From contig JAZQAQ010000219.1 of assembly GCA_045545255.1 (NCBI GenBank), forward strand, positions 1-42,028: a stretch of 42,028 nucleotides of DNA, given 5' to 3'. The notes under the pieces were generated by a model. It was not told the DNA's origin and ran no database searches. It was given only the letters and a program-made list of their open reading frames with translations. Shown piece by piece: positions 8,650 to 26,300 of this stretch. How positions within the stretch are numbered: the stretch's first letter is position 1; each line of letters begins with the position of its first letter. The translations under genes were made by a program, and so were the position numbers. This stretch comes from Eubacteriales bacterium (GTDB lineage: Bacteria; Bacillota; Clostridia; Oscillospirales; QAKW01).

Positions 8650-8669
8650 GAAAGGAGAGTGAACAAGAA

Positions 8670-9527: not shown

Positions 9528-9540
9528 GGAGGTGCTCGAC

Positions 9541-11100
9541 ATGAAAATGAGATTTATGAAAGTCGGCGCTATTGTGATGATTATGGTTGTCTTGGCTTCC
9601 ATGCTTGCAATGCCCTCCTCTGCGTATATCGCTTATAATACCTACAATTTTAATTATTATGGTGAAGCGGTTGAAACACCTTCCGGCTATACTCCCGAGA
9701 AGGTTTACTACGGTGACGATTTAGGGGTCGGAGCTATTACTAACGCTGTTGACCTTTATGTCAGCCCCCAGAATGAGATCTATATTCTGGATTATTTCGG
9801 AAGTGAAAACACCGCGCGTTTGCATATTTTCGATTCCAATTTTAAGCATATTAAAACGATTTCTACTCTTACTGCAAACGGCAAGCCTTACTTAATGAAG
9901 TTGCCCGAGAGTCTCGTGGTCGATAAATATGGTTATATTTATATCTGCGATACCGGTAACCGCCAGATTTTAAAACTGGATAAAGATAAGAGCGGTAAGA
10001 TCGTGCAGACTGTCGGCGCACCCAATTCTGATCTGTTCAGCGGTGATTTCAAGCCCTCCAAGATTGCAATTGCAAAGAATATGTCCCTTTACGTAATCTG
10101 TACCGGTGCTTTGGACGGTATTATGGAGTTTGACTCCAAGGGTACCTTCCTCCGTTACTTCGGTGCTCCTGATGTGCAGATGTCCGTAACCGATATGGTT
10201 ATTTTGGCTTGGCGTCGTATTTACCGTTCCATCCTCGGAAGCGATGCGGATATGGCGTTCGCCACCTTTGTACCTACCGAGTTTGAAAACTTGGTCGTTG
10301 ATGATTTCGGTTTTGTTTATTCTGTAATTGCTGCAGCCGAGGATAAGAATACCGGGCAGCTGATGAAGATGAACTTCCTTGGCAACAATATCCTGGATCC
10401 TCTTGCCAAGAGTACCAAGAAGGTCAACGATACTCTTTCTGAAACCTATGGCGACCTTCTCCGTCGCGGTACAAAGTCTGAGGGTAATATCTTTACTGAT
10501 GTTGCGGTTGACCAAGATGGTTTTATTACTATGCTGGACTCTAACCTTTGCAAGATCTTTGAGTACGATACCGAAGGTAATCTTACCTTTATCTATGGCG
10601 GTGCCGGTAAGCAGCAGGGTTTCCTTTCTCAGCCTGTTGGTATGGCAAAGCTTGGTAAAAAGACCTTGATTCTGGATGCCAACTTTGGCTCTTTGACCGT
10701 CTATGATCTGACCAAGCACGGCCGCACTCTTCATGATGGCATCTTGCTTTATGATCAGGGACTTTATACCGATGCTGAAAAGTATTGGGATGAAATCCTC
10801 AAGCAGAATGCAAACTGTGAGCTTGCTCATATCGGTCTCGGTAAGGTTTATTATCAGTTCGGTCGCTACGCTGAAGCGTTGCATCACTTCAAGATTGCAA
10901 ACGACCGTATGAACTATCAGGATGCTTATGCACTGTATAGAGAATCCCTCATCGCCGATTATTTTGACTTGATTATGACCGCACTGGTTGTTCTGGTTAT
11001 TTTGGCGTTTGTATGGCGTTTCTTTGGAAAGAGAATTATTGAAATGATTAAAAATAGAAAGCAGGGAGGTGGAGACGATGATGCAGAATTTATGGAGTAA
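9541..11100 (+). CDS. Exported six-bladed NHL-like beta-propeller + TPR protein with a C-terminal TM anchor
   Basis: The start was moved to ATG 9541, 9 nt after AAGGAGG. The signal peptide ends ...PSSA/Y. About six repeats of the type LVVDKYGYIYICDTGNRQILKLD or VAVDQDGFITMLDSNLCKIFEYD are visible. A TPR-like segment (AEKYWDEILKQNANCELAHIGLGKVYYQFGRYAEALHHF) is followed by the TM helix MTALVVLVILAFVWRFF and an acidic tail. Confidence 0.7.
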   Translation: MKMRFMKVGAIVMIMVVLASMLAMPSSAYIAYNTYNFNYYGEAVETPSGYTPEKVYYGDDLGVGAITNAVDLYVSPQNEIYILDYFGSENTARLHIFDSNFKHIKTISTLTANGKPYLMKLPESLVVDKYGYIYICDTGNRQILKLDKDKSGKIVQTVGAPNSDLFSGDFKPSKIAIAKNMSLYVICTGALDGIMEFDSKGTFLRYFGAPDVQMSVTDMVILAWRRIYRSILGSDADMAFATFVPTEFENLVVDDFGFVYSVIAAAEDKNTGQLMKMNFLGNNILDPLAKSTKKVNDTLSETYGDLLRRGTKSEGNIFTDVAVDQDGFITMLDSNLCKIFEYDTEGNLTFIYGGAGKQQGFLSQPVGMAKLGKKTLILDANFGSLTVYDLTKHGRTLHDGILLYDQGLYTDAEKYWDEILKQNANCELAHIGLGKVYYQFGRYAEALHHFKIANDRMNYQDAYALYRESLIADYFDLIMTALVVLVILAFVWRFFGKRIIEMIKNRKQGGGDDDAEFME

Positions 11101-11776: not shown

Positions 11777-14002
11777 ATGAAAAAGACAATTTCTATCTTG
11801 TTATCGTTGGTGCTGCTCCTTTCCTGCATCTCTACGATTACATTTACTTCATCTGCTGCACCGGCGAAATTAGATGTTCCCGGCAATTATCAGCTGGTGA
11901 ACGAAAATAAGAATCTGGCACTGTATATTGATAGTACTGCAGGTACTTTCGGTGTAATGAACCAGAAAACCGGTACCGTCTGGTATTCCAACCCCTTGAA
12001 TTGGCAGGATGATAAGATCGCCCAAGGCGAAAGCTATGACGAGCTTACCAGTAAGATCGCGGTTACCTATCTGACTGAGACCTATAAATCTTATACGGTC
12101 ACCTCTAACGTTGCCTCGACCATCACCGAGCGTCAGGGCAAGGATTGGATTATGACCTTCTATTTCAAGGGCGAGAATCGCGATTTCACCATTCCTGTCA
12201 GACTTTCTCTGAAAGAAGAGTATCTTCATATTGAGTTGATGATTGATCGTATCAGAGAGTTTGGTGATACGCGTGTTCTTTCCGTTAAGATGTTCCAGTT
12301 CTTTGGCGCAGCCGGCTTGAATGATAAGGGCTATGGTCTGATTCCCGATGGCACCGGCTCCTTGATGGAGTTTAACCGCGGTGTTCTGAACTCTTATGAG
12401 TTTGGTCTTGAGGGGGAGGGTCAGTTCTATGCTCCGAACCCCACTGAGGTTGCTACCTCTAACTATTTCACCAACTGGAATGAGCCTCTTCGTCTGCCTG
12501 TATACGGTATGGTGAAGAATGGCGAGGCATATCTCAGCGTGATCGAGAGCGGTGAATCAGTTTCTGACTTGCACGCATATATCAGTAAATATAAGAACAG
12601 CTACAATACGATGTTCCCCGTTGTTCACGTTCGTGATACTCAGAGCCGTCGTAGCTCTACCGGTAAGGCAGGTAGTGGTTCTTACTATACCGATTCTTTG
12701 CCGGAGAACTACATTGCAAGATATTATCTCTTGGATGGCGAAAAAGCGAACTACATCGGTATGGCTGAAAAGTACAGAGATATTTTGATCAAAGAGAACG
12801 GTATGAAGGAAGTAAAGGATACCATTTCCAACACTCTCGCCGTTACTCTTTACGGTGCTGTAAAGAAATCTAAGCATTTCCTTGGAATTCCTTATACCGG
12901 TCAGGATCCTTTGACTTCCTATAAAGAGGCGGAAGAACTGATCGATCGTATGAACACCGATAAGATCGAAAAAGCGTATATCAACTATCTTGGTTGGGCA
13001 GCCGGCGGTCTTGAGACCACGATGACCACCGATGTTAATCCGAACTCCAAACTTGGCGGTAAAAAAGCTCTCAAGAGTTTGATTGCTAAGGCAAACGGCA
13101 TTGAAGATTATCATCTTTCCTTTGATCTTGATCTTCAGGCATTCTATAGCGGAAATTCCGATGTCAAAAAGTTTGAGAATACTGCTTATGGTTTGGATTC
13201 TTCTCCTGTAGCGATTTATAAGGCAAGAATTTATGCGGCAGGCGCAAGATCTACCGGTAACATTCTGAATCAGCTGATCCATCCCAATCATATGCTCGGC
13301 TATGCGAAGTCCTTTGTGAAGAATGCATCTGCTTGGGGAATTAAGAACTTCTCCTTTAATTCCATCGGTGATACCGTTTATTGTGCATACAACCTGAAGG
13401 ACGTAAGTACCCGCGATATGACCACTGCAACGATGGTTGAAATCTTCAAGAACGCTTCTGAAGCAGTCGGCGAGAACGGTATTGTAAATACCCTTGGCGG
13501 TAACGGTTATGCAATCTCCTATGTTGACAATATTTTGGAGGCACCCGTTTATGGTAGCCACAATAATATTGCTCTGCAGGAAGTTCCTTTCTATCAGATT
13601 GTTTTCCGTGGCTATGTCAATCTGGCAAGCACTCCGGTCAATCTGAATTCTGAGCAGGATGACTTGATCCTGAAACTGGCTGAAACCGGTATGAGTTTGT
13701 ATTATCTCTTGATGGATGCAGAATCTACCTCCTTCCAGGATACCAAGTTTACTGCTTCTTATGCTTGTGAGCTGGATGATCATTATGATGAAATGATCGC
13801 AAATTATAAGCGTATGAAGGTGGTTTATGATGCGGTCGGTTCCAGCAAGATCACCAATTATGAGATCGTCTCTGAAGATGTGAAGATCACTACCTTCAGC
13901 AACGGCGCAAAGGTCTATGTGAACTACGACACTGAGGAAGTTACCGTTAACGGTGTTAAGATCGGCGCTAAAGACTTTAAAGTGGTAGGGGGTGCTAACT
14001 AA
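11777..14002 (+). CDS. Exported 741-aa protein, DUF5696-like (function unknown); possible lipoprotein
   Basis: SD GGGGAGAGG lies upstream. The N-terminus MKKTISILLSLVLLLSC... has a lipobox-like LLSC, and an alternative SPase I site SSA/AP is also present. No catalytic motif was recognised. The DUF5696 family assignment is from memory of similar loci and is unverified. Confidence 0.6.
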   Translation: MKKTISILLSLVLLLSCISTITFTSSAAPAKLDVPGNYQLVNENKNLALYIDSTAGTFGVMNQKTGTVWYSNPLNWQDDKIAQGESYDELTSKIAVTYLTETYKSYTVTSNVASTITERQGKDWIMTFYFKGENRDFTIPVRLSLKEEYLHIELMIDRIREFGDTRVLSVKMFQFFGAAGLNDKGYGLIPDGTGSLMEFNRGVLNSYEFGLEGEGQFYAPNPTEVATSNYFTNWNEPLRLPVYGMVKNGEAYLSVIESGESVSDLHAYISKYKNSYNTMFPVVHVRDTQSRRSSTGKAGSGSYYTDSLPENYIARYYLLDGEKANYIGMAEKYRDILIKENGMKEVKDTISNTLAVTLYGAVKKSKHFLGIPYTGQDPLTSYKEAEELIDRMNTDKIEKAYINYLGWAAGGLETTMTTDVNPNSKLGGKKALKSLIAKANGIEDYHLSFDLDLQAFYSGNSDVKKFENTAYGLDSSPVAIYKARIYAAGARSTGNILNQLIHPNHMLGYAKSFVKNASAWGIKNFSFNSIGDTVYCAYNLKDVSTRDMTTATMVEIFKNASEAVGENGIVNTLGGNGYAISYVDNILEAPVYGSHNNIALQEVPFYQIVFRGYVNLASTPVNLNSEQDDLILKLAETGMSLYYLLMDAESTSFQDTKFTASYACELDDHYDEMIANYKRMKVVYDAVGSSKITNYEIVSEDVKITTFSNGAKVYVNYDTEEVTVNGVKIGAKDFKVVGGAN

Positions 14003-15426
14003 TGAGCAATCAAAACGAAGAATTGAAAAATGAAGCTTTGGAAGCTCAGGTTGAAGCAAACGATGTCCCCGAGACGGTTGAGGCTGAAGCTCCGGTAGAG
14101 CGTGACAACAAGGAAATTGCTGCTACTCTCACCAAGCAGAATCCCAAACGTGCCCAGGAAATTGCCAAGGAACGTCTTGCGAAGATGTCTCCCGAGCAAA
14201 TTGCGGCACTGCGCGCAGCAAAGGCAGCAAAGATCGAGGCTGAAAAAGCCGCAAAACTTGCGGCCGAAGAGGAAGCTGAGAAAAAGCGTCTCGAGGAGAT
14301 TGAGAAGAAGCAGCTCTCCGACGAGCAAAAAGCAATGATCGTTGATCAGCTTTCTCAGCTGACTCCCGAGCAGTTAGAGGCGGTAAAGCAAAATCGTGCC
14401 GCCAAAAAAGAAAGAGATCAGCGTCTGGCTGAGATCGAAGCTAAAAAAGAGGTTAAGGCAAGCTTAGCAGCTGATACGGCTGCTCCGAAAGCGGAGAAGA
14501 AGGAAGCTAAGAAAGCTAAAAAAGCCACCAAAAAGAATAGACGCGGTATTTCTTATGAATCCAAGCAAGCGTTTACAGGCTTTATGTTTGTACTGCCTTG
14601 GTTTATCGGATTTCTGCTGTTCTTTGCGGCACCCTGCTTCCAGTCCTTGAAATTTGCTTTTTCCAAGGTTGCTGTATTTGAAAATTATAAGTGCACCTGG
14701 TATGGTATCGGTAACTTTAAGGATATTTTGACCAGTGGTGCAACTTATCTGCAGGCATTGCTCGATACTCTGACAGATCTGGCAGTCAATGTGCCGGTTA
14801 TCCTGATCTTCAGCTTGTTCGTCGCTGTTCTGCTGAACCGCAAGTTTGCAGGTCGCGGTCTTGTGCGTGCGATCTTCTTCCTGCCGGTTATCGTTACCAC
14901 CGGTGTCGTTATGAGTACCTTTAACTCCTCCGGCGATGCCAGTGATGTTATGGAAGGCGATGTCGGTAACGGCGTTCTGTTCCAGGTAACCAATGCATCC
15001 AGCTTTTTGGCTGAACTTGGTCTGAATGAAAATTTGACCAATTATATGTCTATGGTCGCTGATCGAATCTTCGACGTAGTATGGGATTCCGGTATCCAGA
15101 TCCTTCTCTTCCTTGCTGCGTTGCAGGGTATTTCTCCCTCGCTGTATGAGGCGAGTGATGTTGAAGGTGCAACCGCTTGGGAAACCTTCTGGTTGATTAC
15201 TTTCCCGAATGTGGCGCCTATCATCTTGGTTAACATCGTTTATACCATCGTTGATACCTTCAGCGATACGGATAACGAGGTCTTGATCGAGATCGATAAG
15301 TATCTTACCAGTACCTTTAACTTTGGTGCTGCATCGGCTGCATCTTGGACATTCTTTATCGTTATTTTGTTGCTTATCGGTATTATTTTCGGTCTGTTTA
15401 AACTGATCGGAAAAGGAAATGATTGA
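14002..15426 (+). CDS. Carbohydrate ABC transporter permease (MalF-like) with a ~180-aa Lys/Glu/Ala-rich N-terminal extension
   Basis: The ATG overlaps the upstream stop (TAATG), and the SD GGGGG (13988-13992) lies 9 nt upstream. Residues 1-182 are low-complexity and charged. From FTGFMFVLPWFIGFLLFF onward it is a typical 6-TM CUT1 permease with the EAA-loop YEASDVEGATAWETFWLITFP. Confidence 0.85.
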   Translation: MSNQNEELKNEALEAQVEANDVPETVEAEAPVERDNKEIAATLTKQNPKRAQEIAKERLAKMSPEQIAALRAAKAAKIEAEKAAKLAAEEEAEKKRLEEIEKKQLSDEQKAMIVDQLSQLTPEQLEAVKQNRAAKKERDQRLAEIEAKKEVKASLAADTAAPKAEKKEAKKAKKATKKNRRGISYESKQAFTGFMFVLPWFIGFLLFFAAPCFQSLKFAFSKVAVFENYKCTWYGIGNFKDILTSGATYLQALLDTLTDLAVNVPVILIFSLFVAVLLNRKFAGRGLVRAIFFLPVIVTTGVVMSTFNSSGDASDVMEGDVGNGVLFQVTNASSFLAELGLNENLTNYMSMVADRIFDVVWDSGIQILLFLAALQGISPSLYEASDVEGATAWETFWLITFPNVAPIILVNIVYTIVDTFSDTDNEVLIEIDKYLTSTFNFGAASAASWTFFIVILLLIGIIFGLFKLIGKGND

Positions 15427-15443
15427 GAAAGGGGGTAAAAAAT

Positions 15444-16448
15444 ATGCGTATTATTAAAGCGTTCAAACATCAGTTTGGTGAAAACAGCAAGAAAGCTGAT
15501 AAGAGAATGTGGGGCTATTTATTGTCCAAGTTTGTGGCAAATACAGCCATTGCATTGATTTTGATCGGTCTTTCGTACATTATTTTGTACCCCTTGATCT
15601 TCAGTATTTCTCAGGCGATCCGTACGCAGGCGGATATGTATGATACGACTATCATCTATATCCCGAAGCATTTTACTCTTGAGAACTTTTTCGCTGCTTG
15701 GGAGGTCCTTGATTTCCCCACAGCGCTGAAGAATACTTTCAACATTTCTATCTGGCCCACACTTTTGCAGGTCTGTACCTGTGCGTTGACCGGCTATGGT
15801 TTTGCTCGGTTTAAATTCCGCGGGAAGAACATCTTGTTCTTGCTGGTGTTGCTGACGATCATCGTACCGCCCTCCACCATTATGATCCCGCTGTATACCA
15901 GCTTCCGTATGTTTGACCCTCTCTACATTGCAACTGCAATGCACGCATTTGGTTGGATCAGCGAGCCTTATCTGACTCTGACTGACTCCCTCTGGAGTTT
16001 CATCCTGCCCGCACTGTTTGCGGCCGGTTTGAAGAGCGGCTTGTTTGTATTCGTTTACCGTCAGTTCTTTAGCGGTTTCCCCAAGGAGTTGGAAGAGGCT
16101 GCTTATATCGACGGTTGTGGCGCAATGAAGACCTTCCTTCGAATCTTGGTTCCCAATGCGGCACCTGCATTTGTAACGGTATTCCTGTTCTGTATCGTTT
16201 GGTACTGGAATGACTATTATACTGTTCCGATGTTCCTGCCGAATATGGATACCCTGCCGAATGCTTTGGGTAACATGCATAGCAATATGACCGGTGACTA
16301 CGGCGGGTATAAGGGTGCTGACGCTATTTCCCTTTATCCGATCCTCCGTGCTGGTATTATTCTGTATATTTCTCCGCTGTTGATTACCTTTATCATCCTG
16401 CAGAAGAAGTTTACGGAGTCTATCGCTCGAAGCGGTATTGTTGGTTAA
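15444..16448 (+). CDS. Carbohydrate ABC transporter permease (MalG-like)
   Basis: The start was moved to ATG 15444, after the SD AAGGGGG. 334 aa, 6 TM, EAA-loop LEEAAYIDGCGAMKTFLRILVP. Confidence 0.85.
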   Translation: MRIIKAFKHQFGENSKKADKRMWGYLLSKFVANTAIALILIGLSYIILYPLIFSISQAIRTQADMYDTTIIYIPKHFTLENFFAAWEVLDFPTALKNTFNISIWPTLLQVCTCALTGYGFARFKFRGKNILFLLVLLTIIVPPSTIMIPLYTSFRMFDPLYIATAMHAFGWISEPYLTLTDSLWSFILPALFAAGLKSGLFVFVYRQFFSGFPKELEEAAYIDGCGAMKTFLRILVPNAAPAFVTVFLFCIVWYWNDYYTVPMFLPNMDTLPNALGNMHSNMTGDYGGYKGADAISLYPILRAGIILYISPLLITFIILQKKFTESIARSGIVG

Positions 16449-16451
16449 TAG

Positions 16452-16486
16452 AAAAAAGAGAGAGACAACGTCTCTCTCTTTTTTTG
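16452..16486 (+). terminator. Intrinsic terminator ending the 12 kb locus
   Basis: Perfect 10-bp stem AGAGAGAGAC (16457-16466), loop AAC, GTCTCTCTCT (16470-16479), then T7. Confidence 0.85.
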
Positions 16487-16517: not shown

Positions 16518-16546
16518 TTGACTTTATATCGGATTTGTGATATAAT
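16518..16546 (+). promoter_or_regulatory. Near-consensus sigma-A promoter of the MarR operon
   Basis: TTGACT (16518-16523), 17 nt spacer, TGaTATAAT (16538-16546). Confidence 0.65.
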
Positions 16547-16550
16547 TCTT

Positions 16551-16570
16551 CTTGTTGAGTATTCAACAAG
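16551..16570 (+). promoter_or_regulatory. Perfect 8-4-8 palindrome, candidate MarR operator
   Basis: CTTGTTGA GTAT TCAACAAG starts 5 nt downstream of the -10 hexamer and therefore overlaps the expected transcription start. Confidence 0.5.
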
Positions 16571-16587
16571 TTTTGACGGAGGTGTTT

Positions 16588-17040
16588 ATGAAGGAGCGAT
16601 TTGAGACTTTTACGGTTCTCATTAACCGTATCAATCGTAATATTCGTAAAATCAAAAATCAGGAAATGGCAGAATATAATTTGAGAAGTGCCCATATTTC
16701 TTGTCTTTATTATTTATACTCTGCCGATGGAATGACCGCAACCGATCTTTGCGAGCGATGCGAAGAGGATAAGGCTACAATATCTCGCGCTTTGGATTTT
16801 CTTGAAGAAAATGGATATTTAACTTGTGAATCCCAAAGTGCCAAGCGGTATAAAAGTCCACTCTTGCTTACCGAAAAAGGTTATATGGTCAGCGCAAAGA
16901 TAGCCGAAAAGATCAGAGGTGTTCTTGATAAGATCGGCGTCGGTCTGACTGAGGAGGAAAGGGTGGCGTTTTATCGCAGTCTTTCCATTATAAGCAGCAG
17001 TCTTGAGCAATGTGTGAATAGTAATAAGAAAACAGTATAA
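16588..17040 (+). CDS. MarR-family transcriptional regulator
   Basis: The start was moved to ATG 16588, after the SD GGAGGTG. 150 aa with a winged-HTH pattern (MTATDLCERCEEDKATISRALDFLEENGYL...KRYKSPLLLTEKG). Confidence 0.85.
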   Translation: MKERFETFTVLINRINRNIRKIKNQEMAEYNLRSAHISCLYYLYSADGMTATDLCERCEEDKATISRALDFLEENGYLTCESQSAKRYKSPLLLTEKGYMVSAKIAEKIRGVLDKIGVGLTEEERVAFYRSLSIISSSLEQCVNSNKKTV

Positions 17041-17060
17041 AACGGAAAGGAATAGTTTTT

Positions 17061-19130
17061 ATGAGCAGAATGAATGAAAAGTATGATGCGCTGTTTACGC
17101 CGTGGAAGATTGGCAATGTTGAGATTAAAAATCGAATCGTAATGTGCCCTATGGGCGGAACCTCACTCTTTGGCTGGTTTGAATTAACAGGATGTCATTT
17201 TGATAAGGAAGCGGCAAAGCTTTTCCTTGAACGAGCTAATAATAATGTTGGTCTTATCATTCCCGGGATTGCACCGTTGAGGGATACCTTTTGGGGTAAA
17301 TGGCTTTGGCAGAATCCGAAGATGTTTGAGGAACTTAAAGTCTTTATGGATGAGATTCATAAGACCGGTGCAAAGCTCTTTATTCAGCTGACTGCGGGGA
17401 TGGGACGCTCTTGGGCGATCACCGAACTTGTGGCACCCTTACATAAAAATAAATTTACCCGCGCCATTGTAAAACCCATTATCGATACTTCTCACGAGTT
17501 GGCATCTCCGTCTCCGCAGCCTTCTCGCTGGGCGCACGACATTGAATGCCCTGAAATGACGGTGGAGCAGATTCACGAAATCATCGAGGCCTTCGCCAAG
17601 ACGGCAAAGCTTTGCAAGGACGCCGGGGTTGACGGCGTGGAAGTTCACGCAGTTCACGAAGGGTATTTATTGGACCAATTTTCTATCGAGTTTTTCAATA
17701 AGCGTACAGATGAGTATGGCGGTAGTTTTGAAAACCGCTATCGTTTTGCGGCAGAGGTTGTAAAAGCAATTAAAGAAACTTGCGGAGAGGATTATCCCGT
17801 ATCTCTCCGTTATTCGGTGGAGTCTAAAATGAAAGGCTTTTGCGAAGGTGCTATGCCCGGCGAGGAATATGTCGAAGTCGGTCGTAATATGGAGGAATCC
17901 GAGCGGGCGGCAAAGTATCTGCAGGATGCGGGCTACGATATGCTCAATGCGGATAACGGCACCTATGATTCTTGGTATTGGGCACATCCGCCTATGTATA
18001 TGCCTGAAAACTGTAATCTTGAGGATGTGGCGCATATTAAGGAGTTTGTGGACATCCCCGTCGTTTGTGCAGGCAGAATGGATGCCGAGGTTGGTGCCAA
18101 GGCTGTGGCTGAAGGAAAAATAGATGCTGTTGGTGTGGCACGCCAATTCCTTGTTGATCCGGAATGGATCACAAAACTGATCGAGGATCGGCTTGATGAT
18201 ATTAAACCTTGCATTTGCTGCCATAGCGGATGCTTTAATTTCTCCTCTTCCAAGGGTCACGCCAATACGCAGGATCTTACCGATACGATGGGTCTTGCTC
18301 GCTGTGCATTAAATCCAGAAACGATGCAATCCAAGAAATACTATATTGAACCTGCAAAAAAGCAAAAGACCATTGCCGTTATCGGTGGCGGTATTGGCGG
18401 AATGGAGTCTGCGCTTGTTTGTGCAAAGCGTGGTCATAAAGTTACTCTTTATGAAAAGTCTGATAAGCTCGGCGGTGTATTTATTGCGGCGGCTGCACCT
18501 TCTTTTAAGGAAAAGGACAAAGCACTCATTGCTTGGTACATTCGTGAACTCTCTAAATATCCTATTGATATTAAATTAAATACGGAAATCAAGGATGTCA
18601 AAGCAATTGATGCGGATGAGATTATCGTGGCGACCGGCGCTGTGGCCAAAAAGATTCCCGTAAAGGGCGCGGAAACTGCAGTAGAAGCAGTGGACTATCT
18701 GCTTGGGAATAAAACCGTCGGTGATAATGTTGTCGTGATCGGCGGCGGATTGACAGGTTGCGAAATCGCATACGATCTGTATCTGCAGGGGAAGAAGCCT
18801 GTAATAGTGGAAATGCAGGACGACTTGATTACGACGAAAGGCATTTGCCTTGCCAATACCAGCTTCTTACGCGATTTCTTTAAGACCAATAAAGTGCCGG
18901 TATATCTTGAAACATCGCTTTGCGAAATTGGCGAAAACAGTGTTTCTCTCAAGAACAAGGAAGGCGAAATCTTTAATGTGGATATGGATTCCGTCATCCT
19001 TTCGGTTGGATATAATCCTGCGCCCATCGTTTCAAAGGGTAAGCATATCCATATTATCGGTGATGCTGAAAAGGTTGGCAATCTCCGTAGTGTTATTTGG
19101 GGCGCGTGGAACACTTGTATGAAATTATAA
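17061..19130 (+). CDS. 2-enoate reductase / 2,4-dienoyl-CoA-reductase-like flavoprotein (OYE FMN barrel + Fe-S Cys cluster + FAD/NAD(P)H domains)
   Basis: 689 aa. The N-terminus is OYE-type (FTPWKIGNVEIKNRIVMCPMG, VEVHAVHEGYLLDQF). A Cys cluster CICCHSGC...RC follows, then Rossmann motifs VIGGGIGGME and VIGGGLTGCE. Confidence 0.85.
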   Translation: MSRMNEKYDALFTPWKIGNVEIKNRIVMCPMGGTSLFGWFELTGCHFDKEAAKLFLERANNNVGLIIPGIAPLRDTFWGKWLWQNPKMFEELKVFMDEIHKTGAKLFIQLTAGMGRSWAITELVAPLHKNKFTRAIVKPIIDTSHELASPSPQPSRWAHDIECPEMTVEQIHEIIEAFAKTAKLCKDAGVDGVEVHAVHEGYLLDQFSIEFFNKRTDEYGGSFENRYRFAAEVVKAIKETCGEDYPVSLRYSVESKMKGFCEGAMPGEEYVEVGRNMEESERAAKYLQDAGYDMLNADNGTYDSWYWAHPPMYMPENCNLEDVAHIKEFVDIPVVCAGRMDAEVGAKAVAEGKIDAVGVARQFLVDPEWITKLIEDRLDDIKPCICCHSGCFNFSSSKGHANTQDLTDTMGLARCALNPETMQSKKYYIEPAKKQKTIAVIGGGIGGMESALVCAKRGHKVTLYEKSDKLGGVFIAAAAPSFKEKDKALIAWYIRELSKYPIDIKLNTEIKDVKAIDADEIIVATGAVAKKIPVKGAETAVEAVDYLLGNKTVGDNVVVIGGGLTGCEIAYDLYLQGKKPVIVEMQDDLITTKGICLANTSFLRDFFKTNKVPVYLETSLCEIGENSVSLKNKEGEIFNVDMDSVILSVGYNPAPIVSKGKHIHIIGDAEKVGNLRSVIWGAWNTCMKL

Positions 19131-19152
19131 TTGACGGATAAGGAGAGGTAGA

Positions 19153-20430
19153 ATGATTTTAACAAAAGAACAGCAAGCCATCCTCGATGGCGAAAAAGGG
19201 GAAACCCTTGCTAAGGTAATGAAGACGCTCGTGATGTACGGTGACGCTTTTGAGGCGGAAAAGCTTGTGCCTATAACCTCAAAGTATAATCACCTTGTTA
19301 CTTCCTTTGGTCTAAAGGTGATGTCTCCCGTATACGATCTGATGCAGCAGTTACTTGACGCAGATGTTGCATCGGAGCAAAAGTTTTCTGTTGACCCCCG
19401 TCCTCTTGATAAAAACGTACCTGCAAACTTCTTGCAAAACTTTGTGTTTAATAAGTTTATGTACACAAAGCAGGAATTTTATGAGGATCAACTTAAGAAG
19501 TTGGGTCTTATGGATGAGAGTGCATTCACCTGTACCTGCTATATGGATGAGGTGGGGAATAAGCCTCAAAAGGGAGAGGTGCTTTCCTGGGCGGAATCCA
19601 GTGCCGTCGTCTATGCAAACTCTGTCCTCGGTGCTCGGTGTAATCGCAATTCAGGTATTATTGATATAATGGGTTCCATCGTGGGATATGTGCCGTATTT
19701 CGGTCTGCTTACCGACGAGGGGAGGAAAGCAACCTGGGTTGTGAAGGTGCAAACTACCCAAAAGCCTGAAGCGCAGCTTCTTGGCTCTGCCATTGGGATG
19801 AAGGTGATGGAAGATGTGCCCTATGTTATCGGGCTTGATAAATGGTTGGGTACTGAACTGAATGATGCAGCTTGCGCTTATCTAAAGGATTTCGGTGCTG
19901 CAACTGCCTCCAATGGTGCAGTCGGTCTTTATCATATTGCAAACCTTACCCCCGAAGCGGTGGAGCTTGGAGAGAATCTGATCGCTGATGGGGCAAAGGA
20001 ATATATTATTGATGACGCTGAACTTGAAAGAGTGAAAAATAACTATCCCGTTATCTGGAAAAATCCTGATGCAACGCCGAAACTTTGCTTTGTGGGATGT
20101 CCGCATCTTTCGCTTGAGCAGCTTAAAGATTGGACGTTGAAGATCGAGTCTGGGCTGAAAAAGAATGGAAAGAAAAAGGTGATCATCAATACGGTGTTTA
20201 CCGCATCTCCGGGCGTATTGGAGGCGTTTGCAAAGACGGAATACGCCGCGAGACTCAAAGCAACAGGGGTTATTACATCATATATTTGTCCGCTGATGTA
20301 TATGAACAATCCTCTGTGTAAAAAGATGCCTGTTATAACGTCTTCGAATAAGTTGCGCACCTATACCAGTGCGCGGTATTATACTGACGCAGAAATTCTC
20401 AAGGCTATTACAGGAGGTAAAAACGAATGA
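19153..20430 (+). CDS. Aconitase X (AcnX/DUF521) catalytic large subunit
   Basis: 425 aa with SD AAGGAGAGG. DUF521 signatures are present: FTCTCYMDE, SWAESSAVVYANSVLGARCNRNSG and FVGCPHLSLEQL. Confidence 0.85.
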   Translation: MILTKEQQAILDGEKGETLAKVMKTLVMYGDAFEAEKLVPITSKYNHLVTSFGLKVMSPVYDLMQQLLDADVASEQKFSVDPRPLDKNVPANFLQNFVFNKFMYTKQEFYEDQLKKLGLMDESAFTCTCYMDEVGNKPQKGEVLSWAESSAVVYANSVLGARCNRNSGIIDIMGSIVGYVPYFGLLTDEGRKATWVVKVQTTQKPEAQLLGSAIGMKVMEDVPYVIGLDKWLGTELNDAACAYLKDFGAATASNGAVGLYHIANLTPEAVELGENLIADGAKEYIIDDAELERVKNNYPVIWKNPDATPKLCFVGCPHLSLEQLKDWTLKIESGLKKNGKKKVIINTVFTASPGVLEAFAKTEYAARLKATGVITSYICPLMYMNNPLCKKMPVITSSNKLRTYTSARYYTDAEILKAITGGKNE

Positions 20431-20870
20431 AACAGTTTAAAGGAAGAGTTATTACCCCCGGTGAGGTGGTCGCTGAAGCGGTAGTGACAACGGAGGGCTT
20501 TAATACACTTGCTTCACTTCAAATGGCACTGCAATTTGGCGATAAGGAAGTAAAATGCGGGGACCAGAGCAATAAAGAACTTTACGGTAAGCCTTTGCTT
20601 GGTAAGGCACTTTGTCTGCCGCAGACCATTGGTTCCACTACCGGCGGACTCGTACTCTATTGCGCTTGCTCTATGGGGAAAAATCCCGCGTGTATGTTGT
20701 TTGCCAACCACATTGATTCTCTCGCTGCGGCAGGTGCTGTTCTTGCGGATGTATGGGTTGACGGCGTAACGATGCCGGTTATTGATTCCTTGGGTGATGA
20801 ATTCTTAAACTATGTAAAAGACGGGATGAAGATTACTGTAAAAGCAGATGGTATCATCGAGGTTGAATAA
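20427..20870 (+). CDS. Aconitase X swivel-domain small subunit (DUF126)
   Basis: 147 aa. An ATGA overlap links it to the large subunit. MKQFKGRVITPGEVVAEAVVTTEGFN... is the typical DUF126 opening. Confidence 0.8.
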   Translation: MKQFKGRVITPGEVVAEAVVTTEGFNTLASLQMALQFGDKEVKCGDQSNKELYGKPLLGKALCLPQTIGSTTGGLVLYCACSMGKNPACMLFANHIDSLAAAGAVLADVWVDGVTMPVIDSLGDEFLNYVKDGMKITVKADGIIEVE

Positions 20871-20874
20871 TTAA

Positions 20875-20912
20875 TAAAACGGAGCAGTCGGTATCGACTG
20901 CTCCGTTTTTTA
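20875..20912. terminator. Bidirectional intrinsic terminator
   Basis: Perfect 13-bp stem AACGGAGCAGTCG (20878-20890), loop GTAT, CGACTGCTCCGTT (20895-20907). An A-run lies upstream and T6 downstream. It serves AcnX on the plus strand and the convergent small ORF on the minus strand. Confidence 0.85.
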
Positions 20913-21074
20913 GAAATTCATGTGTTCCACAAAATTCCCGACTGCTTTGATCGCATTCCCCGCCGTTTTAGTCATACACTTTTTGGGCTTTGATTTCATC
21001 GCAAGCATACTTGCGGTTGCACCCAATGCTGCTCCGGCAACCATAGAAAATATCATTGTACGAGTCTGTTTCAT
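20910..21074 (-). CDS. Small hypothetical membrane protein (54 aa), absent from the ORF track
   Basis: My own translation is MKQTRTMIFSMVAGAALGATASMLAMKSKPKKCMTKTAGNAIKAVGNFVEHMNF. The SD AAGGGA lies 7 nt upstream, an extended -10 sits about 30 nt upstream, and the stop abuts the bidirectional terminator. Confidence 0.5.
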   Translation of the reverse strand: MKQTRTMIFSMVAGAALGATASMLAMKSKPKKCMTKTAGNAIKAVGNFVEHMNF

Positions 21075-21103
21075 TTTATCATCCCTTTCTCTGAAGTAAT
21101 ATT

Positions 21104-21112: not shown

Positions 21113-21200
21113 AATGATTGGTTTTATATTTACTTTTTGAGTCGAATATTATATAATAAAAATATAAAGATTTGACTTTTTGAAAAAACGGGGAAATAAT

Positions 21201-23411
21201 ATGCGCATTTATCAAATGGAAAAAGAGCAGGTTTTGGAGCACTTTTCTTGCGATCTTATAAATGGAAGTGCTGCAAAATCCGATGAAGTGAAAAAAACTG
21301 CCGCTCATAAGAATATTCGGTTTTTGAGCGGTATTTTTGACTTGCTTCATTCTAAATTATATTATATTAACTTAATTGCCGCCATCAGCTTTGTCATCGT
21401 GTTTATTTTTTCATATTTAAATCACGATTGGCATCTTTTGAGCCTTGCCGTTGCGGCTTTTTTGTTGGCTATAGTTCTTTATTTTACGGAAGGCGTCGTG
21501 CTTTATCGTTATAAATCGTCGTACTATAATCGCAGTGTTTGTTATCGCCAGAGCATTAAGGTGATTCGCGGCGGTGAGATCATTGCGCTTGATCCGAATG
21601 ATTTGCAAGTTGGTGATCTGCTGGTCCTTGAGACCGGATCCGTACTGCATTGTGACGCGCGGATCATTGAGGGTGAAGGATTATTTGCAGATGAGGGGCT
21701 CGTCTTTGGTTCCACGATTCCGGAGGAAAAGAACAGTGCTGCGATTCATACGGAGAATCTTTCGGCGGATAAACAAAAAAATATGCTTTGGAAAGGAAGC
21801 TATATTTCTGAAGGCTCTGCGAAAGCAGTCGTAACAGCGTTGGGATCAAATTGCTATGTGGAAAAAACAGGTGGCAGAAAATCCCGTAAACAACGCTCCT
21901 TTTTCTATAACAAACAAAATAACATCGGGAACATCGCCTCGTATGTTTATATTATTTTGATCGCGCTTTGTTTGTTGTTTGCAATTCTTTTTACCAAGCG
22001 TTATGTTGAAGCATTTTTGATAATGGCGGCGATGTCTTCTCTTGTGGCGCTGAATCCGGTCTCCTGCTTGATGGAGTGGACCTACTATCGTACAGCGGAA
22101 AAGTTATATAATAACGGAGTTTTGGTTCGTAATATTGAAGCTTTTGATGGAATGAATAAGGAAAAACAGGTGTATTTCGATGCAGAAGAGCTTGTATCCG
22201 AACGCTTTTCCTATTCTCATACCATTGATATAAACGGTTCAGAAAAGAGCACACTTTCTTATTTCTCTCTTTGTATGGGCCCCGGTTATTTCACGGATAT
22301 TATCCAAAACGCTTTGGCACGTTATGAATTGAGTTATGAAAAACTCGATAATAGTTTCCCCGTATTCCGCCGCGAAAAAGATTCAGACGGAAATTTGTTC
22401 AGCCTTTTCTCAAATGACGGAAAGTCGGTTGTTGTGGCGGTGGGATACTGGAAAAAAATGCTGCCGATGATCCATAAAATGGATGAAGAACTGCTGCAGC
22501 AAATCCGCGAATTGGAGATTCACGGTAAATTTGTTTATCTGATGGCTGCAGATTCGATGGATTATATTCCGAATAAACTCGACTTTTCTTATTTCGAAGG
22601 GCATATGGATCTTGCATCGCTGATCGTATTTAATACCGCAGTGCGCGATGAGGCAAGGTCTATGATTAACCAACTGCGTCGTTCTTCGATGAAAGCCTAT
22701 CTGATCTCCGATTTTTCCGAGCAGTTCAGTGAATATCTCGCTGCCTCTTACGATATGGATGGGCATCTCGCATCGCCCCCGAATAAACCTTGCTATTCCT
22801 TACCTCATTTGAAGGGGAGTGCGCTCGCGGTGAATGAGGGTGCTTCTCCGGTGGATAAAGAGCGGGCAATGGTGATACTGAATCGAAATGCTTCACCTCA
22901 AAATGTGATCTATCAAGTTAAATGTATGTTTTGTGGAATTCGCAGATGCTTTAATTTTCTGGCCATCTCCGGTGTGTTTGTGGTTCTTACGGTGATGAAA
23001 CTTTTTATGTCGGATGTGGGCTTGGAAAAGTTAATTTACCCGATTTTGCTTTTGATACCCATCTTGATTTGTCCTTGCTATTTTCTGATAGAGACTGTAC
23101 GAAACTGTAACCGATATCGCAGAAGTCTGATCTTGGGTATGTTCTGCGGGTCTGCCGGATTTGTGGGTGCCTTGATCTCTTGCGATCTTGCGCTTTTTAC
23201 TTTCGGTCTTTCTGCGTTGTTGCTTTCCGCTTATTTACTGATCTCCGGCGGAAAAAAACGAGAGATCGGACGGCGTGACGTTGCTATGCTTGCGATTCTA
23301 TTGATCGTTTGGGTGATCCCGTGTGTTTTATTCGGCGGGAACTGGCTTCCTGCGGTTCTTTTGGCACTTTTCCCACCTCTTGGTGCTTTGGTACTGGATC
23401 TGTTTTATTAA
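21201..23411 (+). CDS. P2-type (Ca/cation) ATPase homologue with degenerate catalytic motifs
   Basis: 736 aa from ATG 21201. It keeps the cation-ATPase N-terminal pattern, TM1-2, the A-domain (IKVIRGGEIIALDPNDLQVGDLLVLETGSVLHCDARII), TM3-4, the P/N region and about 6 C-terminal TM helices. By-eye alignment gives TGES->FGST, PEGL->NPVSCL, DKTGT->DAEEL, TGDN->SDFS and GDGxND->NEGASP. Confidence 0.75.
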   Translation: MRIYQMEKEQVLEHFSCDLINGSAAKSDEVKKTAAHKNIRFLSGIFDLLHSKLYYINLIAAISFVIVFIFSYLNHDWHLLSLAVAAFLLAIVLYFTEGVVLYRYKSSYYNRSVCYRQSIKVIRGGEIIALDPNDLQVGDLLVLETGSVLHCDARIIEGEGLFADEGLVFGSTIPEEKNSAAIHTENLSADKQKNMLWKGSYISEGSAKAVVTALGSNCYVEKTGGRKSRKQRSFFYNKQNNIGNIASYVYIILIALCLLFAILFTKRYVEAFLIMAAMSSLVALNPVSCLMEWTYYRTAEKLYNNGVLVRNIEAFDGMNKEKQVYFDAEELVSERFSYSHTIDINGSEKSTLSYFSLCMGPGYFTDIIQNALARYELSYEKLDNSFPVFRREKDSDGNLFSLFSNDGKSVVVAVGYWKKMLPMIHKMDEELLQQIRELEIHGKFVYLMAADSMDYIPNKLDFSYFEGHMDLASLIVFNTAVRDEARSMINQLRRSSMKAYLISDFSEQFSEYLAASYDMDGHLASPPNKPCYSLPHLKGSALAVNEGASPVDKERAMVILNRNASPQNVIYQVKCMFCGIRRCFNFLAISGVFVVLTVMKLFMSDVGLEKLIYPILLLIPILICPCYFLIETVRNCNRYRRSLILGMFCGSAGFVGALISCDLALFTFGLSALLLSAYLLISGGKKREIGRRDVAMLAILLIVWVIPCVLFGGNWLPAVLLALFPPLGALVLDLFY

Positions 23412-23506: not shown

Positions 23507-24259
23507 ATGGATTTTGAAGACAAAAAACAACAGTCCGATCTTGTGTTCGGCAAGAATAATGTTACAGAATTGCTGCTGTCTGATGCTGCGGTAGAGCGGG
23601 TCTATCTTGCCGGCGATCCAAAGAGCAACAATTTTAAAAAGATAATCGCCCTTTGCAAGACGAAAGGCGTCCCGATTATCCATACTGATACAAATGCGAT
23701 CAATCGTAAAGCACCCAATGTTAATCATCAGGGCGTAGTGGCTTACTGTGCGCAAAAAGAGTATGCATCGGTCAATGATATTCTGGAGGTTGCTGCCGAG
23801 CGTAATGAAGCCCCGTTTATCATTGTGGCTGATGAGATTGTGGATCCGCATAATCTTGGCGCAATTCTTCGATCTGCAGATGCATTTGGTGCTCACGGCG
23901 TGATTATTTCCAAGCGCAGAGCGGTTGGGCTTACCCCCTCTGTTGCTAAAGCAAGTGGCGGAGCAATTCACTATATTCCCGTGGCAAGAGTCTCCAACCT
24001 CGTACAAACCGTGGAAGAGTTGAAATCCAAAAATATTTGGGTTTACGGTTGTGATATGGCGGGTGAAAATGTGTATTATGAGCAGGATTATTCCGGCGGT
24101 GTTGCTTTGATCGTCGGCAGTGAAGAGTCGGGTATCTCGAGACTTCTTAGAGAGCAGTGCGATTTCTTCGTCAGAATTCCGATGAAGGGAAAGATCTCTT
24201 GCTTGAATGCGTCTGTAGCTGCATCTGTGATTATGCAGGAAATTGCAAAGCGTCGTTAA
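23507..24259 (+). CDS. rlmB: TrmH/SpoU-family 23S rRNA 2'-O-ribose (Gm2251-type) methyltransferase
   Basis: 250 aa from ATG 23507, after the SD GAGGTG. An N-terminal substrate-binding domain (VFGKNNVTELL) is followed by SpoU motifs (DPHNLGAILRSADAFG, IVGSEESGIS, IPMKGKISCLNASVAASV). Confidence 0.85.
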   Translation: MDFEDKKQQSDLVFGKNNVTELLLSDAAVERVYLAGDPKSNNFKKIIALCKTKGVPIIHTDTNAINRKAPNVNHQGVVAYCAQKEYASVNDILEVAAERNEAPFIIVADEIVDPHNLGAILRSADAFGAHGVIISKRRAVGLTPSVAKASGGAIHYIPVARVSNLVQTVEELKSKNIWVYGCDMAGENVYYEQDYSGGVALIVGSEESGISRLLREQCDFFVRIPMKGKISCLNASVAASVIMQEIAKRR

Positions 24260-24275
24260 AAAAGGAGCTTGTTTT

Positions 24276-26300
24276 ATGAGTTTTGAATCGAATGATCAAA
24301 AGTCTTCGTTCGACGAAATTATGGAAAAGATCAATGCCATCCAGCAGGAGGCATCGATCGTGGAGTCGTCGCAAAAGTTGATTGATGCACGCGAAAGCGA
24401 GGCTGACGGTGCGGAGTCCGGCGATGACTTTTTGATCGATGAAAGCATTTTTGATCAAATAATGGATGAAAAAAAGAATTCCTCTGATCCAAAAGAAAAG
24501 TCTGTTATTCGGCGTCTGATCGATGGGGACGAGGAAGAGAATGATGAGCAAGATGAACCGCCCGTTCGCTCTGCTATCTATGATGATGAACCGACCGATA
24601 TTGAAGATTTTGAAGCGGAAGAGGATCGGGATGCAATTTACCGTGACCTGAAGAATATTGTCGGTAAAATGGCGGTAAAGATGATCTTTTTGCTGCTGCT
24701 GAGTATTGCTTCGCTCTATCTCTTTATTGCCGGCTTTCATCCCGTACTTTTCGGTGGAAATGTGGAAACTGCCTGGTATGACATCGCTTTTCTTGCGGTG
24801 GATATTCTCTGCATTGGTGTGTCGTTCGGTATTTTTTCGCAAGGTATTCTGCGCTTGTTGCGTGCTCGCGCTGATACGGATACTTTGCTTGCGTTACTTG
24901 CGGTTGCGCTGGTCGTTGTACGGATCGCAGGATTGATCAAGCCCGATCTTTTTGCTTATAATCTGAATTTTGAACCAATGCTCGCGCTCGGCCTTTGCTT
25001 CAATGTGTCTGCAAAGAAAAAGATAGCGGCAAATATCAAGAAGAACTTTAAGTTTATTGCTTCTACCGGAGATAAGTTGACTGTTTCCGTACCACCTTCT
25101 TGCGAAGCTAATAACAGTTTGATTTTGGAAACGGGAGAGGGCGGAGACGTAATGTATGCCCACCCCACAGCGCTTGTTTCTAAATACATTGAGCATAGCT
25201 ACAGCGATTTTGATTGGGATTATAAATACCAACATCTCTGGTTTGCAATGTTGATAGTGATTCTTGCAGGGACGGTTGCTGTGTCTCAATTGACCGGTTG
25301 GGGAGAGGCGTTGCTCTTTCCTGCGGCAGCTCTTGCACCCTCTGTTCCGTTTTTCTCTCGTCATTTTTATGCAGCATCTATCTCCAAAAACGGGCGTAAG
25401 ATTCGAAAAAACGGCGGTATTCTCACTTCTGCGCAATCCGCAAAAGAATTAGAGGATTCCGATCTTTTGGTGATCTCTGAAGAAGATTTCCTGGGTAGTG
25501 ATGCAGTGTTACTTCAGGGCGTTAAGGCGATGGGGGATATCCAGATAGATGATCTGATTACCAACATTGCGGCACTCTTTAACGATGTCGGCACCCCGTT
25601 GAAACCTCTTTTCTTGAAGATGATTGATAAAGATACCGTTGATCTTCCGCGGGTGGATGACTCCTATTACCATGAGGGAATGGGATATTCCTGCCTGATT
25701 CACAGTAAAATGTTTTTGGTGGGAAATCGAAAGCTGATGGAGCATTTTAATATTGAATTTCCCAAGCAGCTGACAGAACTTCAATTGAAGGATTGCCGTT
25801 TCCCTGTTTATGTTGCGTATCATAAAAGTCCTGCCGGAATTTTCATAACCAGCTTTGAGCGCAATAAGCATACAGAGGCCGCTGTCCGTATTGCGGAGGA
25901 GGAGAGAGTGGGGGTTGGAATTGTTTCCAATAACTTCCTTTTTAATAATGAGCTCCTGCAAAAGATGTATCCCTCTGCACAACCCGATCTTTTTCATTTT
26001 ATCTCCTATGAAACCGGTAAGGCTTGCCGCCCCTATATGAAGCGGCTGGAAAAATCCCCCGACCTTATCGGCTCAATCACAGGGGCGAGGGGATTGGTGG
26101 CGTGCCTTTACGGTGCCAGCAAGCTTCTGACGGCACTGAAAATCAACAGCGTAATTCGCATCATTTATTCTATTATAGCGTTGGCGTTGATCTTCTTTAT
26201 TGCTTTGGCGGGCTATTCTGCTAATACGGCCCTCCAAGTTTTGGCATTTCAAGCCATTTGGCTAGTTCCTGTTTGTGCAGTTTGTACTTTTTGCAAATAA
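24276..26300 (+). CDS. P1B-type (heavy-metal) ATPase homologue with degenerate catalytic motifs and an acidic N-terminal domain
   Basis: 674 aa from ATG 24276, 8 nt after AAGGAG and 16 nt after the rlmB stop. It keeps P1B landmarks: GILRLLRARADTDTLLAL, LVGNRKLMEHFNI and two C-terminal TM helices. The CPC region reads ALAPSVPFF with no Cys. DKTGTLT->SEEDFLG, TGDN->SNNF and GDGxND->TGARGL. The first ~135 aa are Asp/Glu-rich. Confidence 0.7.
   Translation: MSFESNDQKSSFDEIMEKINAIQQEASIVESSQKLIDARESEADGAESGDDFLIDESIFDQIMDEKKNSSDPKEKSVIRRLIDGDEEENDEQDEPPVRSAIYDDEPTDIEDFEAEEDRDAIYRDLKNIVGKMAVKMIFLLLLSIASLYLFIAGFHPVLFGGNVETAWYDIAFLAVDILCIGVSFGIFSQGILRLLRARADTDTLLALLAVALVVVRIAGLIKPDLFAYNLNFEPMLALGLCFNVSAKKKIAANIKKNFKFIASTGDKLTVSVPPSCEANNSLILETGEGGDVMYAHPTALVSKYIEHSYSDFDWDYKYQHLWFAMLIVILAGTVAVSQLTGWGEALLFPAAALAPSVPFFSRHFYAASISKNGRKIRKNGGILTSAQSAKELEDSDLLVISEEDFLGSDAVLLQGVKAMGDIQIDDLITNIAALFNDVGTPLKPLFLKMIDKDTVDLPRVDDSYYHEGMGYSCLIHSKMFLVGNRKLMEHFNIEFPKQLTELQLKDCRFPVYVAYHKSPAGIFITSFERNKHTEAAVRIAEEERVGVGIVSNNFLFNNELLQKMYPSAQPDLFHFISYETGKACRPYMKRLEKSPDLIGSITGARGLVACLYGASKLLTALKINSVIRIIYSIIALALIFFIALAGYSANTALQVLAFQAIWLVPVCAVCTFCK

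Follow-up and report, generated by a model that had tools for sequence, protein, structure and literature searches.

An AcnX-reductase operon in an Oscillospirales genome: a candidate CoA-independent route for the reductive removal of a beta-hydroxyl group

What does AcnX do when its genes adjoin that of an enoate-type reductase? The question is raised by contig JAZQAQ010000219.1 of a Eubacteriales bacterium (GCA_045545255.1; Oscillospirales), of which positions 1 to 42,028 were analysed (hereafter, the window). In this stretch, the genes of a MarR-family regulator, an OYE-type flavin/iron-sulphur reductase and the large and small subunits of AcnX follow one another. The source genome is a 2.1-Mb assembly of 249 contigs, 80.6% complete, and carries only this one AcnX. 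Both characterised AcnX enzymes, cis-3-hydroxyproline dehydratase (AtAcnX) and the archaeal type IIb mevalonate-5-phosphate dehydratase, dehydrate 3-hydroxy acids to 2-enoate or enamine products (PMC8184944). Our analysis suggests that the unit is probably an operon under MarR repression whose products would remove a beta-hydroxyl group reductively, in two steps and independently of coenzyme A (CoA).

The four open reading frames (ORFs) are co-directional, with spacings of +20, +22 and -4 nucleotides (nt), and lie among the following signals:

16457-16477, + strand: terminator-like hairpin, a 7-bp stem followed by a T run, which would end the upstream ABC-permease operon and insulate the AcnX unit
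16518-16546, + strand: sigma-70-type promoter, TTGACT, 17-nt spacer and TG-extended TATAAT (11 of 12 matches)
16551-16570, no strand: operator-like perfect palindrome of 20 bp, CTTGTTGA-GTAT-TCAACAAG, starting 5 nt past the -10 box
16588-17040, + strand: MarR-family regulator, 150 residues (MarR_2 31.5 bits, cut-off 27; GGAGG at 16578-16582)
17061-19130, + strand: OYE (FMN) / 4Fe-4S / FAD-NAD(P)H reductase, 689 residues, assigned by Pfam, NCBIfam and structure matches and by motifs
19153-20430, + strand: AcnX large (catalytic) subunit, 425 residues (PF04412 311 bits; 7cnr_A E 2e-39)
20427-20870, + strand: AcnX small (swivel) subunit, 147 residues (PF01989 46 bits; 7cnr_B E 1e-7), overlapping the large-subunit stop by 4 nt
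20876-20909, no strand: bidirectional intrinsic terminator; its stem has 15 bp, and both strands show T runs

The promoter was the best-scoring one between 16300 and 21300, and a palindrome such as that at 16551-16570 is expected by chance 0.01 times per window. As predicted from these signals, the AcnX unit is a self-contained four-gene operon, insulated at both ends. The original prediction, made on the same DNA, had named these four genes as an operon with a promoter, a palindrome and a closing terminator; the ORFs, spacings and Pfam matches bear out the gene identities and the operon structure, and all three signals were located. A reading of the MarR protein from the in-frame TTG at 16552, with 162 residues, needs correction: since GGAGG sits five nt upstream of the ATG at 16588, the latter is the likelier start, and the protein would have 150 residues.

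The assignment of the two AcnX subunits was then compared with solved structures. Both adjacent genes pass the Pfam gathering thresholds (AcnX, 311 versus 31.5 bits; AcnX_swivel, 46 versus 27 bits), and the large subunit is closer to the archaeal type IIb structure 7cnr (E 2e-39) than to the cis-3-hydroxyproline dehydratase structures 7cnp/7d2r (E 1e-17 to 2e-18). In the Thermococcus kodakarensis enzyme (TkAcnX), the large subunit supplies Cys110, Cys283, Cys342, Glu129, Ser130, Lys361 and Tyr365 as Fe-S ligands and shared catalytic residues, to which the small subunit adds Ser62 (PMC8184944). All the shared type II residues are present by alignment in the window proteins, as C127, C316, C379, E148, S149, S150, K400 and Y404 of the large subunit, with C379 and K400/Y404 positioned through the AtAcnX alignment alone, and as S70 of the small subunit. 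This Ser70, the catalytic serine by alignment, sits in a G69-S70-T71-T72 motif. In the known AcnX enzymes, the swivel-domain serine takes the C2 proton, and the C3 hydroxyl, held by the cluster, Glu and Lys, is eliminated (PMC8184944).

The window enzyme shares with AtAcnX the fold, the catalytic Ser70, a Thr at swivel position 72 and, presumably, beta-elimination from a 3-hydroxy acid. However, AtAcnX binds a [2Fe-2S] cluster through a Cys-x-Cys pair, whereas the window AcnX has the different, type II ligand pattern and is not linked to proline racemase or OCD genes. At the AtAcnX landmark Asp203/Ile206 (H-I-D-G-C-I-Y), profile alignment places H47-L-V-T-S-F-G53 of the window large subunit, with Val and Phe. 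An internal control was provided by the Bacillota AcnX of loci L126, L129, L134 and L135 (about 28-30% identity), which adjoin proline-racemase-family and OCD/mu-crystallin genes and carry H-I-D-G-C-L-Y. Moreover, the window AcnX scored 135 bits with the NCBIfam cis-3-hydroxyproline dehydratase model NF051439 (cut-off 700), and no proline-racemase-family (Pro_racemase) gene was found in its genome, which is 80.6% complete.

These data bear on an alternative in which the substrate is a hydroxyproline or an ammonium acid, either cis-3-hydroxy-L-proline, converted to pyrroline-2-carboxylate and then proline, or L-carnitine, converted to crotonobetaine and gamma-butyrobetaine without CoA esters. 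Dehydration of cis-3-hydroxyproline is a known AcnX activity (PMC5144071, PMC8184944), proline-racemase-family and OCD-family genes lie near the distant trio L120, and in L086 a reductase-AcnX trio stands among MttB/MtbB methylamine methyltransferase genes. However, the racemase is absent from the 81-83% relatives of L120, and L086 has a different pocket motif, HFVIAHA; the window AcnX itself has Val/Phe where AtAcnX has Asp203/Ile206, which the Firmicute enzymes truly beside proline racemase and OCD do match in their motif. The hydroxyproline route was rejected on the landmark residues, the gene context and the racemase search in the 80.6%-complete genome, and we regard this alternative, carnitine included, as very improbable.

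The archaeal type IIb enzyme (T. kodakarensis TK1249/TK1248, PDB 7cnr/7cns; also Aeropyrum pernix) resembles the window AcnX more closely: it is the best sequence match and has the same two-subunit architecture, three Cys ligands of [4Fe-4S]-type pattern (C127, C316 and C379 in the window), the residues Glu-Ser-Ser, Lys and Tyr for binding the carboxylate and the C3 hydroxyl, and the catalytic serine of the small subunit. A bacterial mevalonate-5-phosphate dehydratase in a modified mevalonate pathway might thus be considered, given the match to 7cnr (E 2e-39) and the name 'phosphomevalonate dehydratase large subunit-like' that some databases give to relatives. However, the identity is only about 30-35%, and the conserved partner is an enoate-type reductase rather than the decarboxylase UbiD. 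Of the archaeal phosphate-binding loop with Asn53 and Asn79, Asn53 does not appear to be kept: it aligns with Val or Lys in a loop that carries 3-residue insertions and whose register varies by 1-2 residues among three alignments. In the window's genome (80.6% complete), neither HMG-CoA reductase nor UbiD was found and IspH of the methylerythritol phosphate pathway is present, on which grounds the modified mevalonate pathway was rejected as extremely improbable.

According to the authors of the structures, both sets of landmark residues are missing from the bacterial AcnX subclasses IIc to IIf, none of which has been characterised (PMC8184944), a description that the clade of the window AcnX fits. 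Its alignments and gene context indicate that the window AcnX is neither cis-3-hydroxyproline dehydratase nor mevalonate-5-phosphate dehydratase. This agrees with the original prediction, which expected an AcnX other than the two known enzymes and would have been contradicted by clustering with the hydroxyproline dehydratases: the window AcnX does not cluster there, it lacks the landmark residues, and no gene for the pathway partners was found in the 80.6%-complete genome.

The partner enzyme has the architecture of the 2-enoate reductase / 2,4-dienoyl-CoA reductase family, in which an OYE barrel is followed by a CxxCxxxC...C 4Fe-4S site and two dinucleotide-binding folds for FAD and NAD(P)H. 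Pfam detected Oxidored_FMN (190 bits) and Pyr_redox_2 (115 bits), and the motifs are H196-A-V-H199-E-G-Y202, C384-x-C-C387-x3-C391...C415 (CICCHSGC at 384), GGGIGG at 442 and GGGLTG at 561. The best solved-structure matches were 6qkg (2-naphthoyl-CoA reductase, E 1e-56) and 1ps9 (FadH). The layout is thus that of clostridial 2-enoate reductase (EC 1.3.1.31), Escherichia coli FadH and 2-naphthoyl-CoA reductase, but the window reductase is only about 30% identical to the solved members, and its clade has insertions of its own at about 120-140 and inside the cluster loop. With the NCBIfam models of bilirubin reductase BilR (365 bits, cut-off 750) and bile-acid BaiCD (351 bits, cut-off 825), it falls far short of the cut-offs. 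From these features, we infer an enoate-type C=C reductase that would use NAD(P)H.

Is the association of this reductase with AcnX more than local? A scan of one genome per species returned at least 595 relatives, of which the best 80 (80-92% identical), nearly all from ruminant and other animal gut assemblies, were examined. The order reductase, AcnX large subunit, AcnX small subunit (Red-AcnXL-AcnXS) was found in 76 of the 80 loci, or 76 of the 77 informative ones; three of the four exceptions begin less than 200 nt from the AcnX gene, at a contig end, and L039 is the only close locus that has room for the reductase and lacks it. The flanking genes vary from locus to locus. More distant relatives were sought in 401 evenly sampled Bacillota genomes. 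An AcnX-like gene occurs in 24 of these, with at least 38% identity to that of the window in six, and in five of the six an OYE/FAD reductase adjoins AcnX, upstream or downstream. In the sixth genome, G278, the AcnX pair stands alone and a 71%-identical reductase is on another contig.

Finally, 80 metagenome loci (AcnX 49-91% identical to the window's) were collected, and those 33 in which either flank measures at least 2.3 kb were counted. A co-directional reductase was present in 24 of them, at a gap of 19-70 nt in 23 and of 501 nt in one, again upstream or downstream of AcnX. These reductases are of two types, one of 650-690 residues like that of the window and one of 730-757 residues, about 30-34% identical to each other, and AcnX proteins 72-73% identical to the window's pair with either. 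Raw pairing counts are inflated by the relatedness of the loci, and the tree of AcnX large subunits, only partly resolved, gives no count of how often the link arose; nevertheless, the occurrence of at least six distinct arrangements points to coupling in function and not to synteny by inheritance. The original prediction proposed such a coupling of AcnX to an enoate-type reductase and suggested a survey of other genomes; a pairing conserved across gene orders and reductase types now supports it. Full-text searches found no paper on a reductase-linked AcnX and met only the two known AcnX functions; for the locus tags of the related Clostridium carboxidivorans locus, no literature was found.

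Three further observations were made among these relatives. In L156 (5028-7655), a ferredoxin-domain (Fer4) nitroreductase-family gene overlaps the AcnX small-subunit stop in place of the OYE/FAD reductase, which looks like a non-homologous replacement of the reducing partner. In G278 (L236, 8309-11880), the unlinked reductase gene follows a co-directional DUF1846 (UPF0371) gene at a distance of 6 nt. AcnX large subunits 81-86% identical occur with unrelated flanks in assemblies labelled Erysipelotrichaceae, Anaeroplasmataceae, Lachnospiraceae, Oscillospiraceae and Acutalibacteraceae (L036, L059, L068, L073 and L074), which suggests lateral spread of the AcnX module, if the bin labels are right.

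How might the two enzymes act together? 2-Enoates are the substrate class of OYE-type enoate reductases with the His/His/Tyr motif. No CoA ligase or transferase gene was found within the operon. Since the products of AcnX fit the class of the reductase and the unit holds no CoA gene, the simplest reading is the conversion of a 3-hydroxy acid to a 2-enoate and then to a saturated acid. In the first step, the two-subunit [4Fe-4S] AcnX would take the alpha proton of a 3-hydroxy-carboxylic acid through Ser70 of its small subunit, and the C3 hydroxyl would leave to give the 2-enoate. In the second, the FMN / 4Fe-4S / FAD reductase would saturate the C2=C3 bond with NAD(P)H and release the saturated acid, at a cost of one NAD(P)H for the whole conversion, so that the pathway could serve as an electron sink. 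We infer this chemistry, its direction, the order of the steps, the lack of a CoA ester and the electron-sink role from the protein families and the gene content, and consider the general mechanism likely.

This logic has precedents. The Cai pathway of E. coli converts carnitine to crotonobetaine and then to gamma-butyrobetaine, and fumarase with fumarate reductase likewise dehydrate and then reduce; in both systems a beta-hydroxy acid is dehydrated and the enoate is reduced as an anaerobic electron sink. The enzyme families of both systems are unrelated to those of the window unit, and the Cai pathway uses CoA esters, a crotonase and an acyl-CoA dehydrogenase, whereas no CoA-activating gene accompanies the window unit.

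Alternatively, the two enzymes may not work in series. Responses to electrophile and aromatic-acid stress typically involve regulators of the MarR and TetR families and OYE-type reductases, and the unit could serve, under MarR control, against toxic electrophilic enoates (acrylate or cinnamates, for example), which AcnX would hydrate and the reductase would saturate in parallel; the reductase could also act first, on another double bond. Such a role would agree with the interchangeability of the reductase type and with the aerobes, among them Bacillus and Rhodococcus, in which the AcnX pair follows LysR and stands alone. However, the gene gaps are tight or overlapping, the adjacency has been held over wide divergence, and both known AcnX enzymes act in the direction of dehydration. 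We consider a parallel action, or the reverse order, to be distinctly improbable.

The regulator was examined in the same set of loci. The window protein has a winged-helix MarR domain and there is an inverted repeat at its own promoter, the palindrome overlapping the start region. Its best NCBIfam match was BilQ, and the score of 36 bits is so far under the cut-off of 125 that it is not BilQ. Of the 59 close loci with room for it, 12 have a co-directional MarR gene immediately upstream; MarR is a variable accessory of the module. Elsewhere, the regulator is of the TetR, sigma-54 activator or LysR type, or there is none: the distant trios L120, L086 and L121 have homologous PAS/sigma-54 activators, the trio of C. 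carboxidivorans P7 has a TetR regulator, and the aerobe loci (e.g., Bacillus and Rhodococcus) combine LysR with the AcnX pair and lack the reductase. The unit of C. carboxidivorans P7 (locus L224), which lies at Ccar_03865, reads TetR-Red-AcnXL-AcnXS, and its AcnXL and reductase share 50% and 41% identity, respectively, with their counterparts in the window. The operator TTGTTGA-N4-TCAACAA (18 bp) was present upstream of the module in 12 related loci, in seven of them at the MarR promoter and in five, which have no adjacent MarR, 44-61 nt before the reductase gene. Since it stays with the reductase promoter even when no MarR gene adjoins, the operator belongs to the module. Repression by MarR through the palindromic operator is a putative part of the reading proposed here, which we hold to be probable rather than assured.

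Which 3-hydroxy acid would be the substrate? The pocket positions that separate the known AcnX enzymes are apolar in the window, with Val49 and Phe52 in the large subunit and Leu28 in the small subunit, and an amine would meet no acidic residue to hold it. Throughout the clade of the window AcnX, the motif H-[LIV]-V-T-S-[FM]-G is invariant, and it is also kept in L083, in L118-L120 and in the Bacillus, C. carboxidivorans and Rhodococcus homologues. The bulky apolar residues could reflect an apolar substituent or merely a small substrate. Given the apolar character of the pocket's variable side, we tentatively favour a 3-hydroxy acid with a neutral alkyl or aryl substituent over an amino acid or a polycarboxylic acid. 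Examples, named with low confidence, would be 3-hydroxy-3-arylpropionates, from which cinnamates would form, as well as 3-hydroxypropionate and 3-hydroxybutyrate.

A hydroxy acid with two or three carboxyl groups could also pass through the same two steps: malate, citramalate, citrate or isocitrate would yield fumarate, mesaconate or aconitate, and these in turn succinate, methylsuccinate or tricarballylate. The pathway would then be an electron sink that uses the plant acids of the herbivore gut. Such substrates would suit the overwhelmingly ruminant gut origin of the close relatives, the Arg (R402) that follows the catalytic Lys in the window's AcnX clade, the nearness of the window AcnX to an enzyme for mevalonate 5-phosphate, itself a tertiary 3-hydroxy acid, and the resemblance to TcuC and ShiA of a transporter beside actinobacterial homologues. 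However, Val49, Phe52 and Leu28 make the substrate-variable positions apolar, the variable side of the pocket has no clade-specific basic residue, and no citrate/dicarboxylate transporter, lyase or tricarboxylic acid cycle gene was linked in about 200 loci. The literature search found no gene assigned to rumen aconitate reduction for comparison, nor any paper on a CoA-free carnitine dehydratase. A polycarboxylic substrate seems unlikely.

The neighbourhoods of related loci offer some leads on this class. In Rhodococcus sp. ZPP and in the metagenomic locus L085 (AcnX 46% identical to the window's), the LysR-AcnX pair adjoins a ShiA/TcuC-like MHS transporter in an island with a flavin hydroxylase, a meta-cleavage hydrolase and a 3-carboxyethylcatechol 2,3-dioxygenase, the dioxygenase scoring over its NCBIfam cut-off. 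By its predicted content, this island is a gene set for the catabolism of 3-hydroxyphenylpropionate and 3-hydroxycinnamate, and it fits a dehydratase that would convert a 3-aryl-3-hydroxypropionate to a cinnamate. One such acid, HPHPA [3-hydroxy-3-(3-hydroxyphenyl)propionic acid], is an abundant urinary metabolite attributed to gut Clostridia (PMC6316614). A second lead comes from L048, an 86% relative, in which two copies of the operator, MarR, an Fe-alcohol dehydrogenase, an aldehyde dehydrogenase (ALDH), Red, AcnXL and AcnXS follow one another in one direction (2766-9715), and from L001, which has ALDH upstream as in L048 and a ketopantoate-reductase-like gene downstream, the latter recurring in L004 and L027. 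These operons suggest that the substrate may be reached by oxidation of a hydroxy-alcohol or aldehyde, for example 3-hydroxypropionaldehyde to 3-hydroxypropionate. A B12 diol dehydratase was not found in the window's genome, but the search controls were also blank and the result carries no weight; the one pyruvate formate-lyase-like enzyme of this genome is split over contig ends and is uninformative for the 3-hydroxypropionate/glycerol idea.

Other contexts were set aside. In L086 (1-15320; also in L087), the trio, at 43% identity, is immediately preceded by a dimethylamine-methyltransferase-like gene that an in-frame stop divides, which is consistent with pyrrolysine, and sits among MttB paralogues and two PAS/sigma-54 activators; its AcnX is the one with the HFVIAHA pocket motif. 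Because their pocket motifs differ from that of the window, neither the carnitine/methylamine reading suggested by L086 nor an amino-acid reading suggested by L121 was transferred to it.

Several observations weigh against the two-step pathway and the substrate class proposed for it. The register of the pocket loop shifts by 1-2 residues among three alignments to the archaeal structure and was anchored against AtAcnX alone. When the genes on the flanks were clustered for 80 loci from genomes and 80 from metagenomes, no transporter, pathway gene or substrate-supplying enzyme proved to be conserved beside the module; the only recurrent neighbours were MarR (12 loci), DegV (about four), the ketopantoate-reductase-like gene (three) and ALDH (two to three). 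The substrate leads are weak, as they come from few loci (46-88% identity) and diverge towards aryl acids, diol-derived acids and ketopantoate-reductase-like partners. No reductase adjoins AcnX in nine of the 33 metagenome loci, in L039 or in G278. Furthermore, the reductases are not orthologous throughout, which also fits a loose or opportunistic association, and OYE/FAD reductases are multi-copy in some carrier genomes, with five matches in G229.

Outside the operon, a few features of the window may be recorded. Upstream (11777-16448, + strand), a DUF5696 protein (480 bits) is followed by two ABC permeases, the first of which is unusually long (474 residues), with the permease domain matched at its C-terminus only. 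Downstream, an ORF of about 54 residues with a hydrophobic core (20912-21076, - strand), too short for the 60-residue limit of the ORF list, lies between the bidirectional terminator and the promoter region of a P-type-ATPase-like gene. The 743-residue product of the latter (21180-23411, + strand) matches only the E1-E2 ATPase (actuator/membrane) part of P-type ATPases and falls far under the cut-off of every NCBIfam P-type model; it may be a degenerate or divergent P-type ATPase. A 685-residue ORF right behind rlmB (24243-26300, + strand) has no Pfam or NCBIfam match.

Taken at its sequence evidence, the AcnX unit of the window represents a variant, as yet uncharacterised, of a known enzyme family, and its reductase is a new and robust partner. 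At least several hundred species genomes, from anaerobes of the gut, the rumen and digesters, carry the clade of its AcnX, almost always linked to a reductase of the enoate type, which makes this clade a well-defined candidate for a third function of the family. Its MarR, together with the conserved operator of 18 bp, offers a handle for ligand screening. It is conceivable, if rather doubtful, that the trio represents a widespread CoA-free 'reductive beta-dehydroxylation' pathway by which gut anaerobes act on an orphan gut metabolite. If so, 3-aryl-3-hydroxypropionates of the HPHPA type would be linked to hydroxycinnamates and arylpropionates; if the substrate were 3-hydroxypropionate, its conversion through acrylate to propionate would close a redox-neutral route from glycerol to propionate. 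Confirmation of the pathway would give clostridial enoate reductases a physiological role and would establish a CoA-independent route from 3-hydroxy acids to saturated acids, with a bearing on the electron balance of the gut and on the production of aromatic and short-chain acids.

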